NCBI GenBank assembly: GCA_965205265.1
Contig: CBDBGH010000003.1
Span: 960,001 to 1,024,000, forward strand
DNA from: Alphaproteobacteria bacterium
GTDB taxonomy: Bacteria; Pseudomonadota; Alphaproteobacteria; Bin95
DNA length: 64,000 nucleotides
Reading direction: 5' to 3'
The notes beneath the pieces are model-generated. The model saw only the letters and a list, made by a program, of their open reading frames with translations. It was not told where the DNA came from and made no database searches. This document shows positions 17,127-40,291 of the stretch, piece after piece (the first letter of the stretch is position 1; each line of letters starts with the position of its first letter). Both the position numbers and the translations under genes were made by a program.

Positions 17127-18017
17127 ATGGCGCGGATCGCATTTATCGGGGTCGGCAATATGGGCGGCCCCATGGCCCGAAACCTGATGACGGCCCAGCA
17201 TGCCGTGACCGCCTGGGACCCGGTGGATGCGGCGCTCGACGCCGTCGTCGAGGCGGGTGCTGCGCGGGCGGCTTCGGCGGCCGCGGCCGTCAAGGGTGCG
17301 GAGGCGGTCGTCACCATGGTACCGGCGGGGCCGGAGGTGCGCGAGGTCTATCTGGGCGCGGGCGGGGTTCTGGCGGCGGCGGAGCCGGGAACGCTCCTGA
17401 TCGACTGCTCGACCATCGATGTCGCCACCTCGCGCGACGTTGCGGAGGAAGCGGCGGCGCGGGGCTTCGAGATGGTCGACGCGCCGGTCTCCGGCGGCAC
17501 CGGGGGGGCCATTGCGGGCACGCTCACCTTCATGGTCGGCGGGCCGGATGCGGCCTTCGAGAAGGCCCGCCCGATCCTGGAGCATATGGGCGCGCGGATC
17601 GTGCATTGCGGGCCTGCCGGCAACGGCCAGGCGGCGAAGGTCTGCAACAACATGATGCTGGCGGTCAGCATGCTGGGCGTCTGCGAAGGGTTCACGCTCG
17701 CGGACAATCTGGGCCTCGACCGCCAGACGCTCTTCGATGTCGTCGCGAATTCCTCCGGCCAGAGCTGGGCGGTGACGAGTTACTGCCCGGTGCCGGGCCC
17801 GGTGCCGGCTTCGCCGGCGAACAACGGTTTCCAGCCGGGCTTCACCGCCGACATGATGGTCAAGGACCTGCGCCTCGCCAGGGACGCCGCGATGAAGAGC
17901 GGCACCGGCACGCCGATGGGCGCGCTCGCCGAGGCGCTGATGGCGCTGCATGTGGCCGGGGGCAACGGCCCGCGCGACTTCTCCTCGATCATCGAGACCA
18001 TCCGCGCCGGCGGCTGA
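17127..18017 (+). CDS. mmsB: 3-hydroxyisobutyrate dehydrogenase
   Basis: GVGNMGGPMA, DAPVSGG, GQAAKVCNNM, CPVPG, KDL. Confidence 0.93.
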   Translation: MARIAFIGVGNMGGPMARNLMTAQHAVTAWDPVDAALDAVVEAGAARAASAAAAVKGAEAVVTMVPAGPEVREVYLGAGGVLAAAEPGTLLIDCSTIDVATSRDVAEEAAARGFEMVDAPVSGGTGGAIAGTLTFMVGGPDAAFEKARPILEHMGARIVHCGPAGNGQAAKVCNNMMLAVSMLGVCEGFTLADNLGLDRQTLFDVVANSSGQSWAVTSYCPVPGPVPASPANNGFQPGFTADMMVKDLRLARDAAMKSGTGTPMGALAEALMALHVAGGNGPRDFSSIIETIRAGG

Positions 18018-18034
18018 GGGACGGGGGGAAGAGC

Positions 18035-19141
18035 GTGAAGACGGTCGTCAACAGCTGGAACGAGTGGGACCCGCTGCGCCATGTCATCGTCGGGCGGGCG
18101 GACGGTTGCTGCATTCCGCCGCCGGAGCCCGCGAGCGATCCGAAAATCCCGCTGGACAGCGACATGCGCGGCGTTCACGGGCCCCGCTCGCAGGAGACCG
18201 TGGACAGGGCGAACGAGCAGTTGGATGCCTTCGCCGCCATGCTGGAGAAGCGCGGCATCCGGGTGGACCGTCCGGACCCCATAGACTTCAACCGGGCCAT
18301 TGCGACCCCGGACTGGAGCCACGGATCGATGTTCGGCTGCCAGCCGCCGCGCGACGTGCTGCTGACGGTCGGCTCCGAGATGCTCGAAGCGACCATGTCC
18401 TACCGCTCGCGCTGGTTCGAATATCTCTGCTACCGCCCGTTGCTGAAGCGCTTCTGGGACGAGGACCCGAACATGCGCCATGAGGCGGCGCCGAAGCCGC
18501 GCCTCACGGACGCCTCCTACAAGCCGGACTATCTCTCCGACGACATCACCATTGAGGAGCGCCTGGAGATGGTGGCGGCGAAGGATTTCGTCACCACCGA
18601 GGCGGAGCCGCTGTTCGACGCGGCCGACGTGCTGCGTTTCGGGCGCGACCTCTTCGTCCAGCACGGCTTCACCACGAACCTCACCGGCATCGAATGGCTG
18701 CGCCGGCACTTCCCGGACCACCGCGTCCATGCGCTCAACTTTCCGGGCGACCCCTATCCGATCCATATCGATGCGAGCTTCACGCCGCTCCGGCCGGGCC
18801 TCGTCCTCAACAATCCGGAGCGCCGTCTGCCGGACGAGCAGCGCGAGGTCTTCCACCGTAACGGCTGGGAGATCGTGGACGCGGCCCGCCCGGCGCATAA
18901 CAGCCCGCCGCCGCTCTGCTATTCGAGCGTGTGGCTGTCGATGAACGTGCTGGTGCTGGACCCGAAGACGGTCTGCGTGGAGGCGAGCGAGGTCCACCAG
19001 ATGGACCAGATCGACAGGCTGGGCCTGGAGGTGGTGCCGGTCCCCTTCCGCGACGCCTATGCCTTCGGCGGCGGCCTTCACTGCGCGACGGCGGATGTGC
19101 GGCGCGAGGGCAATTGCGAGGATTATTTCCCGGCAGGCTGA
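18035..19141 (+). CDS. L-arginine amidinotransferase (AGAT-like)
   Basis: VNSWNEWDPL, PRD, FDAAD, HID, GGGLHC (Asp/His/Cys triad). Confidence 0.9.
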   Translation: MKTVVNSWNEWDPLRHVIVGRADGCCIPPPEPASDPKIPLDSDMRGVHGPRSQETVDRANEQLDAFAAMLEKRGIRVDRPDPIDFNRAIATPDWSHGSMFGCQPPRDVLLTVGSEMLEATMSYRSRWFEYLCYRPLLKRFWDEDPNMRHEAAPKPRLTDASYKPDYLSDDITIEERLEMVAAKDFVTTEAEPLFDAADVLRFGRDLFVQHGFTTNLTGIEWLRRHFPDHRVHALNFPGDPYPIHIDASFTPLRPGLVLNNPERRLPDEQREVFHRNGWEIVDAARPAHNSPPPLCYSSVWLSMNVLVLDPKTVCVEASEVHQMDQIDRLGLEVVPVPFRDAYAFGGGLHCATADVRREGNCEDYFPAG

Positions 19142-19240
19142 CTGCCGCATTCATGCCGGCATGCTTCTCTTCCCCTACTTTCCAGCTTTGCAGCACATGA
19201 ACAATTTCCGATACTTCTAAATTTTGTTCCCTGTATGGGC

Positions 19241-19267
19241 TTGACATCTGGCGGATTGTGGTATGAC
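19241..19267 (+). promoter_or_regulatory. Promoter-like site of element copy A
   Basis: TTGACA-N15-TATGAC with TGTGG (extended -10) behind an AT-rich tract; same geometry in copy B. Confidence 0.55.
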
Positions 19268-19345
19268 GGCTCCCAGGGAAGCGGACTCCGGAGCCGCCTC
19301 CCCCGGGTGCTGCGCAGCGCCATTTTTGAAAACACCCGAGAAGCC

Positions 19346-19465
19346 AACGGGAGACGTGCGTCCTGTGCTTCGCGCGCGCAATCAGGCGCGCAAACCGCGC
19401 CGCCGCGAAATGCGCGCCGGCGGGCGCGGGCTCAGGCGCGCAGGATACGCGCGAAACAGGGACCC
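19346..19465 (+). ncRNA. Putative structured RNA/ssDNA motif, copy A
   Basis: Outer stem CCTG..TTCGCGCG / CGCGCGAAACAGG enclosing GGCGCG-CAAAC-CGCGCC and TGCGCGCC..GGCGCGCA hairpins; conserved in three copies. Confidence 0.5.
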
Positions 19466-19490
19466 GCTCCCCGTCGGAGGAGGAGAGACG

Positions 19491-20087
19491 ATGACCGCAA
19501 CCGACCCCCGCCCCGAACTGGCGGCGATGCTGGCCGAAAAGCTGGCACCGGCCGCCGCAGCCCTCGCCGCCGCCTATGCGGAAGATATGAACGCAGCGCC
19601 GCCGCCGGAGGACGACCGCGCCCTTGCCGAACATCACCGCGCCGGACGCGCCGCGCTCTCGCATCTGCGCCAGCTCCTCAACGTGCTCGACTGGGCCGCC
19701 ACCCGCATGCCCGAGCCGGAGCCTTTGCCTGCCGGGGAGACGGCGGACGACCTCGACGACTGGGCGCCGGAGCCGGAACCGGAGACCGGCTATGACGGCA
19801 GCGAGGACGAATACCACTATTTCGACGAGGTCTATGTCGGCAGCCAGCAGACGCCGGAGTTCCGGGCCTGGCATGCGGAGCAGGAGCGCCGCTTCGGGCC
19901 GCTGGTGCCGGACGAGGACAGTTACGACGGCAGCGAGGACTACTACAACTTCGGCGAGCGCCAGTATGTGGGCAAGCTGACCACGCCTGAGTTCTACGAC
20001 TGGCTCGCCCGCCAGGAACGCCGCGAGGCCGCAGAACTCGCCGCAAGAGAAGCCGCAGAAGGAGGCGGGAGCGTCGGCGGGCGGTAG
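19491..20087 (+). CDS. Hypothetical 198-aa protein with a helical N-terminus and two acidic/aromatic repeats
   Basis: Strong RBS GGAGGAGGAG; high GC3; YDGSED..YVG...TPEF..W...QERR twice, 44 aa apart. Confidence 0.75.
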   Translation: MTATDPRPELAAMLAEKLAPAAAALAAAYAEDMNAAPPPEDDRALAEHHRAGRAALSHLRQLLNVLDWAATRMPEPEPLPAGETADDLDDWAPEPEPETGYDGSEDEYHYFDEVYVGSQQTPEFRAWHAEQERRFGPLVPDEDSYDGSEDYYNFGERQYVGKLTTPEFYDWLARQERREAAELAAREAAEGGGSVGGR

Positions 20088-20247
20088 GGCCTCGCGCCGC
20101 AAGGGGCAGCGCTCGCCGAGAGAGGTCCCGGATCGACGCTGACGCGCCGTCCGGGACAACGGGAGAGGCTTGAAAGGAAATCGAAGAGCGGACGGCTTCA
20201 TGCCCGAAACGACTACAGCATATGACTCCGGCGCATACAAAACATGA

Positions 20248-20495
20248 GGGGCTTATATGGATAGGTTGACAACAGGTTTGGGAGGCTTCGCACCTTCTCT
20301 CCGGCGTCCAACCCGCCCCCATATCGTCATACCCGGACTTGTTCCGGGTATCCATGCGGCCGTCCGGCGGCAGCGGTGGAGAGAGATACCCGGAACAAGT
20401 CCGGGTATGACGGAGGGGACGTGACGGAGGGGGCGTTGAGGTATGACGGAAGAAATGTCGTCGGTCTCCCCCGTCAACCTATCCATATAAGCCCC
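20248..20495. mobile_element. 248-bp MITE (IS1595/IS1016-like ends, inferred)
   Basis: Perfect 23-bp TIR GGGGCTTATATGGATAGGTTGAC; 8-bp TSD AAACATGA at 20240-20247 and 20496-20503. Confidence 0.88.
20325..20412. repeat. REP doublet (REPIN/RIME-like hairpin) inside the MITE
   Basis: CGTCATACCCGGACTTGTTCCGGGTATC ... GATACCCGGAACAAGTCCGGGTATGACG. Confidence 0.85.
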
Positions 20496-20567
20496 AAACA
20501 TGACATATCATGACGCCTGCCGGGTGTGGGCTGTTATGCGTCCTCGCTGCCCATGGCTCCCGCGGCC

Positions 20568-23650: not shown

Positions 23651-23950
23651 GGTCCTGTTCGCTCCGTTTCGGTCCCCCGCAGCAAAGCCCATTCCCGCCC
23701 TGCGCTCAAGCGGGGTTCGAGACACGGCAACCGAATTCAAGCGCGGCTTTCGAGCATGGTGGAAGGAAAGGAAACATCCACAAACGCTGTCACCCCCGTC
23801 TGTTCCCGTCCCCGAGCAGGGAAGGCGGGCCCGGCCCCGGTTCTCGCGGCAGCCCCGGACCGCCAGGACAGGCCCCGGCGGTCCGGCCCGCTCTCCACCG
23901 GCTGCGGCGGCATCGAAGGCCAGAGCGGCGATTCGAGTCCGAACCGGAAA

Positions 23951-24480
23951 TATGTATCTATTGGAATAGGTTCCGATAAAATTCAGAATATTCGGGCTAT
24001 ATTTCTCTTATAGTAATTGCATTTTCAGAAAATGTGGTATGATGATCCGAAGGAAGAGGCATCAGCGGACCGCTTCCTGCCCGCGCCGGCCCGGCGTGGA
24101 CCGACCCCGATTCAGCCGACGGGCGAGGTGAGCCCTGCATCCGTCTCGCGCGCAATCAGGTGCGCGAACCGCGCCGGCGCGAAACGCCCGCCCGCCCGCG
24201 CACGGGCGCGCACGCGATACGCGCGAAACAGGGTCCTGCCGTTCCGGGACGCCCGGGGGGGGGGGTGGCGCCAACGCCGCCATCCGGAATGTTCGCTGCG
24301 TTCGGCACGGTGGCGGGAAAAACGGAACAATGACGGATCGAAAGGAAGGGCCATGTCGAAGAGACGGAGCCGGGGGAACCCGGATGCGATACCCGGAACT
24401 CGAGCCCGAAGCGACGGCGTCATGCCTGGAAGGACCACAGGATATGCATCGTAAACATGCAGATCATGACATTTCATGAC
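23951..24480 (+). repeat. Composite intergenic element, copy B
   Basis: AT-rich island; TTGCAT-N15-TATGAT (24017-24043); core 24118-24236; RBS and 33-aa ORF 24353-24454; tail 24413-24480. Confidence 0.75.
24118..24236 (+). ncRNA. Putative structured motif, copy B
   Basis: CCCTG..GTCTCGCGCG / CGCGCGAAACAGGG outer stem; GGTGCG-CGAAC-CGCGCC hairpin retained through a G-U pair. Confidence 0.5.
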
Positions 24481-24547
24481 GTATCGCCGGGGTGCGGCTC
24501 ATAACATGCCGCTCGGGTCCTCCTCCCGACCGGTGCGAAGCGCGCGG

Positions 24548-38960: not shown

Positions 38961-39073
38961 TACCGGCGGCGCGGGGTTGCGACCCACGAAGATGCCTCCC
39001 CGCCATCGCCCCGGACCTTGAACCCTACCGGATTCACGCATCTGCCAACGATCTCGGACTACGCGCTCTCATG

Positions 39074-39163
39074 CGTCGCCCCGAACCCCGATCCGGGGCC
39101 TTGTGCAGCCGGAGCTCCGCTGCACGGAGGCCCCGGCTCGCCCTGCGGGCGTCCGGGGCGACG
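39074..39163. repeat. REP/RIME-like palindrome (second sequence type)
   Basis: CGTCGCCCCG ... CGGGGCGACG outer arms with nested GGGGCC/GGCCCC and GTGCAGC/GCTGCAC stems. Confidence 0.6.
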
Positions 39164-39193
39164 ATTGGGGCGCGGGGAGGGACTGCGGAATGT

Positions 39194-39640
39194 GTCATGG
39201 GATGTCATGTTTTCCATGCCGGGCGGTCATGCACTACAGCCGTTCCAGGCATAACGCTCTCGGTTCCGCCCCGGCTTCCGCCTGTTTCTCCGGGGTCTTC
39301 CATCTTCGGGTTCGGGGCATGGGTTTCTCCTTTTCGCTCCCGTTTCGTTCCATCCGCCTGCCGGCGGCGGGACCCTGATTCGCGCGTAATGCGCGCGGGT
39401 GCCCGCGCCCGCGGGCGCACGTTTCGCGCCGGCGCGATTCGCGCGCCTGATTGCCCGGGAGCGCCCCCGCGCGCGATCCGGACGCAGGGCGCACGTCTCC
39501 CGTTCGCTCTGAGGGGGTCTTTACGCGCCGACGCGGCAGCAGACGGCCTCCGGATGACGCCTGCTCGCGCCCTATATGGCTGAGAGCGGCTCTAATATCA
39601 AGTCCCTATACAGAATTATTTCAAAATTTTCGAACAATCC
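39194..39640 (-). repeat. Composite intergenic element, copy C
   Basis: AT-rich island; CTTGAT-N17-CCATAT (39602-39574); core 39504-39369; RBS AAGGAG and 28-aa ORF 39320-39234; tail 39261-39194. Confidence 0.75.
39369..39504 (-). ncRNA. Putative structured motif, copy C
   Basis: CCCTG..GATCGCGCG / CGCGCGAATCAGGG outer stem; GGCGCG-CGAAT-CGCGCC hairpin. Confidence 0.5.
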
Positions 39641-39719
39641 CGGTTTCATACCAGCAGTCGTTGACCGGAACCCATTCCGGCTTCGACGCCCGCCGCCCCG
39701 ATCGCCTCCATCCGTCATG

Positions 39720-40076
39720 CCCGGACTTGTTCCACGGCTGTCCAGTTTAGATTTGGGGGACAGAGCGCATGGCCTGGATTCAACCGGGTTTCGAGGGGTT
39801 CGGCGAGATCGGGACCCGGATCGACGCCCGGCGGCCCGGCCCTGTTCCCGTCATACCCGGACTTGTTCCGGGTATCCATACGGCCGCCTGGCAGAGCCGC
39901 TTGAGAGAGATACCCGGAACAAGTCCGGGTATGACGAAAGAGCCTGCCCTGAACCTGTCGAAGGGGGGCGTTCGGGCATGACGGACAGGAGGCCGACCGG
40001 GGACGCCGCGCGCTCCCAAAATCCCGTTCGGCTCCCCCTCAATGTCTGAACCGGACACCAGTGGAACAAGTCCGGG
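39720..40076. mobile_element. Non-autonomous element with ~30-40-bp imperfect TIRs inserted in a REP arm
   Basis: CCCGGACTTGTTCCACGGCTGTCCAGTTTAGA versus reverse complement of the right end CCCGGACTTGTTCCACTGGTGTCCGGTTCAGA; the REP resumes after 40076. Confidence 0.62.
39849..39985. repeat. REP doublet plus AGCCTGCCCTGAACCTGTCGAAGG repeat, nested in the above element
   Basis: Arms identical to 20325-20412. Confidence 0.85.
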
Positions 40077-40142
40077 TATCCATGCGGCCGCCCCGGGGAG
40101 AAGCGGTGGAGGGAGATGCCCGGAACAAGTCCGGGCATGACG
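40063..40142. repeat. Right part of the interrupted REP doublet
   Basis: CCGGGTATCCATGCGGCC ... GATGCCCGGAACAAGTCCGGGCATGACG pairs with CGTCATGCCCGG at 39713. Confidence 0.75.
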
Positions 40143-40291
40143 AGAAGAAGACATGAGTCCGAAGTCGAGGCCACTGGTATCACACTCTGGCGCGCCTGTT
40201 CCCGCCCCCGGGCGGGGACGTGGAGACCGATGCAGCCGGGGCGGCCGTCGGCCCCGGCTCCGGTCAACGATGGTCGGTACGGGCCGGCCCG

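Follow-up and report, generated by a model that had tools for sequence, protein, structure and literature searches.

A genus-restricted family of about 70 dispersed promoter-bearing cassettes with a near-invariant GC-rich core in an alphaproteobacterial genome

The 64,000-nt stretch of DNA analyzed here (the window; G+C 69%) contains three copies of a dispersed unit, here called A, B and C, each centered on a GC-rich core. A preliminary description of this DNA had pointed to three look-alike segments at 19346-19465 (copy A), 24118-24236 (copy B) and 39504-39369 (copy C, reverse strand). Our alignment confirmed them in the form described, down to the linker GCAATCA, the motif CGCGAAA and a 6-bp palindrome with T in place of C in copy B; likewise, the octamer AACGGGAG is present at 19346 and 20158 in copy A and at 39504 and 39344 in copy C. 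The three copies are real and their similarity is far beyond chance, but only a part of the repeated unit had been recognized. Comparison of the copies together with their flanks showed that similarity begins about 130 nt upstream of the core and continues to 235-1223 nt downstream of it. The complete unit, which measures 0.45-1.3 kb and contains a promoter, a ribosome-binding site and ORFs, is arranged in a constant order: an AT-rich promoter-like region, a pair of hairpins in the leader (P1 and P2), the GC-rich core of about 120 nt, a hairpin with the ribosome-binding site, an ORF and a 3' module.

The AT-rich block holds a TGTTC motif in 50 of 66 copies, and the promoter-like site displays good -35 and TG-extended -10 hexamers that are mostly separated by a 15-nt spacer. 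In copy A, which lies on the forward strand, this region was read from the sequence at 19196..19267, in a layout that recurs throughout the family: CATGAACAA at 19196-19204, TTGACA at 19241-19246, the 15-nt spacer and a TG-extended TATGAC at 19262-19267. A scan for E. coli-type promoters returned no sites in the regions of A, B and C; it requires a spacer of 16-18 nt and hence misses the site of copy A with its 15 nt. Hexamers at this shorter spacing presumably fit the housekeeping promoter consensus of the alphaproteobacteria. Next come the leader hairpin P1 (19276..19302) and, directly upstream of the core, P2 with a T-run (19306..19328), which is terminator-like by scan (19306-19321) and conserved in the A-type copies. 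The core itself (19346..19465) is followed by a candidate for a short hairpin (CTCC/GGAG; 19467..19488), overlapping with the purine-rich ribosome-binding site, and by the cargo, an ORF for an acidic protein of 198 aa (19491..20087; GC3 0.83) with nine intact paralogues in the genome. The unit closes with the 3' module (20158..20247), which runs from the second AACGGGAG through ATGCCCGAA to CATGA and is shortened at 20247/20248 by another repeat element.

Copy B, also on the forward strand, has its promoter-like site at 24017..24043 (TTGCAT, a 15-nt spacer and a TG-extended TATGAT), the leader hairpins at 24052-24077 (P1) and 24081-24099 (P2) and the core at 24118..24236. Behind a GAAAGGAAGG ribosome-binding site lies a 33-codon ORF of uncertain coding status (24353..24454), and the 3' module (24420..24480) has two CATGAC repeats at 24465-24470 and 24475-24480. 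An extra insert of about 55 nt (GGCGCCAACGCCGCC..., about 24266-24320), which is shared with the cassettes c57, c59 and c68, separates the core of this copy from its ribosome-binding site and is preceded by a run of 11 G (about 24256-24266). Copy C is laid out on the reverse strand, with a promoter-like site at 39573..39601 (TTGATA, a 17-nt spacer and CATATA), P1 at 39565-39538, P2 at 39535-39524 and a core that contains an additional GC insert of about 18 nt (39369..39504). A 28-codon ORF, again of uncertain coding status, follows behind a ribosome-binding site (39234..39320), and the 3' module (39194..39243) includes CATGAC repeats at 39209-39204 and 39199-39194. Larger ORFs of 931, 424 and 522 aa downstream of A, B and C, respectively, were rejected as spurious, as they match no Pfam family and failed the GC3 test; the actual downstream neighbors of all three copies are convergent genes. 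Across the genome, crude GC3-based gene calls place a convergent gene downstream of 41 of 70 cassettes and a co-directional one downstream of 29, and because the neighbor is mostly convergent, the cassette does not act as a leader of host genes.

The 3' module ends in two to six CATGAC repeats with a 10-nt period, often grouped as two clusters, each of 2-3 repeats, with about 27 nt between them. It is found downstream on the same strand for 55 of 71 cores (54 at a distance of 235-1223 nt and one at 3904 nt). Viewed from the other side, of the 89 tandem CATGAC arrays detected genome-wide, 72 have a same-strand core upstream of them. A related motif (TGTTCATG or CATGAACA) also occurs near the opposite end of the cassette in 16 of 66 copies, compared to 1.7 ± 1.2 in shuffled sequences.

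A profile built from copies A, B and C recovered 71 copies at E < 1e-10 in an assembly-wide search, all of them on the 5.46-Mb contig and none on the contigs of 193 kb and 43 kb. BLAST identity between the copies is 70-85%. The listed contamination of the assembly is 7.28%; every cassette copy is on its main contig. We detected the promoter-core stretch in 15 of the 16 genomes from the genus; it was not found in any of 24 more distant ones (eight from other genera of the same family and 16 from other families of the class). With the core of copy B as the query, three divergent congeners yielded 35-40 matches each at 70-83% identity, and these genomes keep the full layout, including the terminase-like ORF described below and the CATGAC arrays; the same query found no match in G003 and G013, two of the weak positives of the promoter-core search. 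An exact-pattern scan with one genome per species returned at least 63 loci, and those listed are all in records with MAG titles (60 as 'Alphaproteobacteria bacterium', 2 as 'Bryobacterales bacterium' and 1 as 'bacterium'). There were no matches to the cassette DNA in 50,697 phage records, plasmid collections or IMG/VR, and our literature searches on mobile promoters, on repeats of sponge-symbiont Alphaproteobacteria and on pac recognition by small terminases yielded no account of the element. Copies A, B and C are members of a genus-specific family of about 70 cassettes.

The cassettes differ in their presence between related genomes. A block of 830 bp that includes copy B (23715-24544) is absent in three of five relatives, where its flanks are 4-13 bp apart; in the remaining two the flanks lie elsewhere. 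The empty junction is also seen in one contig of the RNA-library run X1. The block with copy C (38961-40282, 1322 bp) is absent in all five relatives, and two copies found in other MAGs (L031 and L048, both with rearranged sites) are missing from this genome. Other cassettes have been retained at orthologous positions. Copy A coincides with a break in synteny relative to five relatives (about 19130-19165 and 20561), in which its left and right flanks are on separate contigs or far apart, a situation that fits rearrangement via recombination between dispersed copies. Since the inserted B and C blocks include other repeat families, the exact ends, target sites and duplications are unreadable; neither terminal inverted repeats nor a target duplication was seen at the junctions examined.

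Three kinds of ORF, which are not homologous to each other, are found behind one and the same leader: the acidic protein of the 198-aa type, a terminase-like helix-turn-helix (HTH) protein and an ORF of about 30 codons. The acidic protein (195-206 aa) is present in nine copies, including copy A. It belongs to no Pfam, NCBIfam or PADLOC family, and its sole match is a weak one to phrog_31793 (E 2e-6); in public data its family comprises 154 protein clusters. The HTH protein, of about 303-317 aa, is encoded by seven of the 71 copies, none of them within the window, and two more copies hold shortened versions. Its N-terminus is a Terminase_2 domain (PF03592 at 4e-13; phrog_51 at 9e-14), and all seven Terminase_2 genes of the genome lie inside cassettes. 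At least 365 clusters, each of them full-length, make up its family, and 34 homologues share many invariant residues over the full length. The structural model is confident for the first ~100 residues only, with the C-terminal two thirds being of low confidence. Its N-domain superposes on the DNA-binding domain of the SF6 small terminase (4zc3) with a TM score of 0.90 and an rmsd of 1.1 Å over 57 columns, and the fold also matches 2cmp; a Foldseek search with the model of the protein gave no rows at E ≤ 0.001. NCBIfam and PADLOC have no family for this protein either, and its viral relatives have the HTH domain alone in common with it, at 28-36% identity. Kinship between the HTH and acidic proteins was ruled out by comparison. 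In the majority of copies, including B and C, the ORF of about 30 codons is the only one; its 3' frame is not kept between copies, several showing in-frame stops in the conserved 3' module. Searches of the genome for the large terminase (PF03354, PF03237 and PF04466) and the HK97-type capsid (PF05065) returned no matches to any of them, and the control genomes did match. In the absence of these genes, the seven small-terminase-like genes cannot serve a resident phage; in this genome, which has no phage, all genes of the kind are carried by cassettes.

Conservation within the unit is highest in the core, with about 95% identity at its center as against about 60% in the promoter. In an alignment of 150 sequences (the first 150 of the 156 from this and other genomes that were left by a redundancy filter), 20 core columns are invariant and 33 nearly so, and the core stays conserved even in cassettes where the ORF has decayed. 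A coding role was rejected: the core has an open frame in A, B and C, but the copies differ by 2-nt and other non-triplet indels. The preliminary description had instead proposed a multi-stem fold, preserved by compatible changes, in a structured RNA placed between a promoter and a ribosome-binding site. The placement holds up, given the promoter-like site, but the hairpins that covary all lie outside the core. Several tests went against the fold. First, the outer stem and the first hairpin (hairpin 1) showed zero to one pairs with changes on both sides across the 150 sequences, and a covariation score of 0.032 that equals the 0.032 of shuffled alignments. Second, RNAalifold, applied to 64 of the 71 copies (c04, c15, c23, c35, c55, c70 and c71 being excluded as duplicates or truncated), gave -16.6 kcal/mol and a covariation term as small as -0.43 kcal/mol; among the 14 pairs of the resulting fold, a single one has a compensatory change, and the proposed hairpin does not appear in it. 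Third, the folding energy of 59 distinct cores is close to that of dinucleotide shuffles (mean z -0.74, with 10% below -2), and the antisense strand folds equally well (-1.02). The second hairpin, supposedly formed by a different sequence in each copy, has a mean z of -0.58, and across 65 copies the share in which the longest stem exceeded that of 95% of shuffles was 0% (hairpin 1) and 9% (hairpin 2), so that the energies and best stems of the latter match those of shuffled sequences. The minimum-free-energy folds of the whole leader vary between copies. Finally, Rfam had no match in the whole window at the gathering score, and at E ≤ 5 the region 19150-20350 retrieved solely an irrelevant miRNA model (E 1.7), leaving the core without a match at either level.

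The possibility that the core is nonetheless a structured non-coding or cis-regulatory RNA, with stems too conserved to display covariation, draws on its location in a leader with RNA-like behavior of the flanking hairpins, and on its persistence despite ORF decay. Hairpin 1 is indeed paired in 99% of cells and hardly variable, its commonest change is a C to U that retains a G.U pair (11 of 150 sequences), and in some divergent copies it is lengthened by a 2-nt insert with pairing maintained. Against this, its nine unpaired cells in the 150 sequences arise from disruptive changes, none of which is compensated, and together with the tests above they make this explanation unlikely. The preliminary description had itself cautioned, correctly, that CG-rich sequence pairs easily by chance, and had offered as an alternative that the recurring units are recognition sites read as sequence; this fits the near-invariance of the core better. 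The core is conserved as a sequence and not as a demonstrable RNA fold, although its invariance could also be due to gene conversion among the copies. There is a caution here for RNA discovery: CG-rich repeats can yield plausible stems, including an apparent 'different sequence, same hairpin' pattern, from composition alone.

The hairpins flanking the core behave differently. In P1 and P2, analyzed in the first 150 of 157 sequences, compensatory changes were observed in eight of 11 pairs (six of seven for P1 alone). Cells with double changes number 87 as against 39.8 ± 4.4 in shuffles, none of 500 shuffles being as high, and the score is 0.236 compared to 0.171 for shuffled and 0.047-0.114 for slid controls. 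Among the non-Watson-Crick cells, G.U outnumbers A.C by 85 to 38 in P1 and by 70 to 8 in P2, a bias that fits pairing in the sense RNA and not in the other strand or in a DNA palindrome. The post-core hairpin, tested on a MAFFT alignment that mixes subfamilies, has 58 compensatory cells versus 36.3 ± 4.4 and a score of 0.192 versus 0.124, again with none of 500 shuffles as high. The shuffles ignore relatedness, and related sequences can exceed them even without structure; hence, the covariation of P1 and P2 is only suggestive and leans partly on the slid controls. The case for the flanking hairpins covarying as sense-strand RNA would is good but not conclusive. As for transcripts, two metatranscriptome runs hold part of the stretch in the form of assembled contigs, and the cover of the core relative to its neighbors in these RNA-library contigs does not exceed the inflation by copy number that a DNA run displays as well.

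Taken together, we favor, at a probability of roughly 60%, the reading that these elements form a selfish or recombining, genus-restricted cassette of about 70 copies, which is gained and lost between species and whose core is read as sequence. Under such a model, a housekeeping-type promoter would drive a leader RNA that opens with the two covarying hairpins, the second of them terminator-like in A-type copies, and continues through the near-invariant core and the hairpin overlapping the ribosome-binding site to an exchangeable ORF and the CATGAC 3' module. As the core is kept as primary sequence, something presumably reads it as such; the core would then be a primary-sequence recognition site, with a protein acting on the leader or its DNA as the likeliest reader. 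This reader might control expression of the cassette ORF, by way of terminator read-through in the leader or of ribosome-binding-site accessibility, or else the propagation of the cassette. The phased CATGAC repeats would most likely be binding sites of the cassette HTH protein, which would act in trans on copies that do not have the gene. It looks like conservation holds for the cis-acting parts, namely the core and the 3' module, with the ORF being exchanged or left to decay. The ancestry of the cassette probably goes back to the promoter/packaging-site/small-terminase region of a phage. If the favored reading as a whole is correct, the cassette would be an undescribed kind of bacterial repeat, a closed expression unit whose ORF is exchangeable, whose core is invariant and whose end repeats are phased; it would occupy some tens of kilobases per genome across a whole uncultured genus and mark synteny breakpoints. 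It would also offer a tractable case for studying how promoter-bearing elements spread without a recognizable transposase, what role orphan terminase-like HTH proteins play and whether a protein reads an invariant leader element of 35-40 nt.

An alternative view would be that of a neutral dispersed repeat with no present function, in which the cores are alike through shared descent and GC-biased gene conversion among the copies, and both the promoter and the ORFs would be relics. Several observations are in line with it: the genome is packed with other repeat families, the position of copy A at a synteny breakpoint is expected under recombination between copies, the frames of the short ORFs are not maintained and the gradient of conservation has its maximum in the longest run of identical sequence. 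However, the whole layout and both protein families persist in species with copies of only 70-83% identity, the HTH protein has many invariant residues along its entire length, the two families amount to the 365 or more and 154 clusters noted above and the hairpins retain their pairing through compensatory change. We accordingly rate neutrality as improbable, on a par with a structured-RNA core.

We compared the cassette with several known types of elements. The putative mobile promoters, in the part of their description drawn on here (PMC3575422), are likewise highly similar promoter-plus-leader segments that occur many times per genome in front of unrelated coding sequences, and the cassette shows this feature in that the HTH protein, the 198-aa protein and short ORFs all have the same promoter-leader in front of them. 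In contrast to the mobile promoters of that account, the cassette promoter moves inside a closed unit that also comprises an ORF of its own, a conserved 3' module and the invariant core of 120 nt; it is present in about 70 copies and in most cases is not directed at a host gene. MITEs, REP/BIME and Correia repeats resemble the cassettes in being dispersed, intergenic and multicopy, in showing presence/absence variation among relatives and in being nested with other repeats. Unlike these, the cassette has no terminal inverted repeats or target duplications at the junctions examined, is 0.45-1.3 kb long with a promoter and ORFs and combines an identity of 70-85% with a sharply uneven conservation. 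The ends of transposons such as Tn7 and Mu hold several phased transposase-binding sites. The cassette similarly has two to six direct repeats at one end and the related motif near the other in 16 of 66 copies, but there is no associated transposase gene, its exact termini are undefined and the left motif is missing in most copies. Moreover, no Pfam domain of a transposase or recombinase is present in the cargo ORFs, by which measure the cassette is not an insertion sequence or an autonomous transposon. The antisense RNAs P1 c4 and P4 CI, of which the preliminary description had been reminded, share with the cassette a short structured-looking region near repeated motifs downstream of a promoter. 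In the cassette, however, the octamers AACGGGAG are of the same sense, are found in A and C and are missing in B, and the context is not that of an immunity region. Rfam includes a C4 family, and as there was neither an Rfam match nor a phage context, this likeness does not hold.

By analogy, the nearest known layout would be that of the pac region of SPP1-type phages, as far as the relevant part of the published account (PMC4737164) covers it. There, the SPP1 pac site is described as spanning promoters and the start of the small-terminase gene, with direct repeats in three sets, and the isolated small-terminase domain of SF6 as having little sequence specificity in vitro. To the extent given in that source, the SPP1/SF6 region with G1P (PDB 3zqq, 4zc3, 2cmp) and the cassette have in common an HTH small-terminase gene behind its own promoter, conserved non-coding flanks, sets of direct repeats and a matching N-domain fold. 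Set against the same description, the cassettes reside in a genome that has no large terminase, capsid or other phage gene, have their repeats 3' of the gene, encode a protein with a conserved extension of 200 aa and exist as about 70 dispersed copies, most of which have lost or swapped the gene. A G1P-type HTH domain is encoded in seven of 71 copies, with the partner large terminase and head genes absent.

These parallels raise a further and more doubtful explanation, namely that of a packaging hijack: the orphan small-terminase-like protein would bind dispersed pac-like sites and recruit the large terminase of an infecting phage, with host DNA then being packaged from about 70 starts and transduction, phage interference or both as the outcome. 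The SF6/SPP1 type of the HTH domain, the succession of promoter, conserved site, small-terminase gene and direct repeats, and the seven genes with no resident phage to serve are all compatible with it, but packaging, cleavage and phage dependence are purely putative here, the phage records and IMG/VR gave no match to cassette DNA, viral relatives share the HTH domain only, the C-terminal two thirds of the protein are modeled with low confidence, the gene is absent from 64 of 71 copies and PADLOC has no such family, which together make the hijack quite unlikely. The same slim chance attaches to the chromosome-wide version of the idea, in which the cassettes would serve as some 70 pac-like sites, the core being recognized or cut, and the orphan protein would capture the packaging motors of infecting phages in trans. 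Were it true, this would be the smallest known phage satellite, or a host-level system of transduction or interference, in an uncultured symbiont lineage.

Returning to the cassettes as selfish or recombining elements, a few observations concern their immediate surroundings. A repeat of about 370 bp with GTCATACCCGGACTTGTTCCGGGTAT-type palindromes lies at about 39713-40079 of the window, and also inside 20300-20560; with 664 blastn hits in the genome, it represents a very abundant MITE-like family nested beside cassettes. GC-rich REP-like repeats of about 90-100 nt, at about 23827-23915 and 39072-39174, have 20-31 blastn hits each and often adjoin cassettes. The relative G007 has about 860 bp extra compared to the window at about 17998-18024. 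One cassette copy has an unrelated inserted gene behind it, which by eye from its sequence we take to be IS1595-like. Another repeat element, starting with GGGGCTTATATGG, is inserted right after CATGA of the CATGAC repeats in six cassettes, including copy A (20248-20560 of the window). One further cassette, c39, shows a related end, GGGGATTACAAAG, with a transposase-like ORF of 332 aa behind it. These junctions suggest target-specific insertion into the CATGAC array. Finally, two tandem cassettes occur at G000:C3 near 165,600-166,200, where the terminase-like ORF of the upstream cassette is broken by the downstream cassette directly after a CATGAC-like pair.
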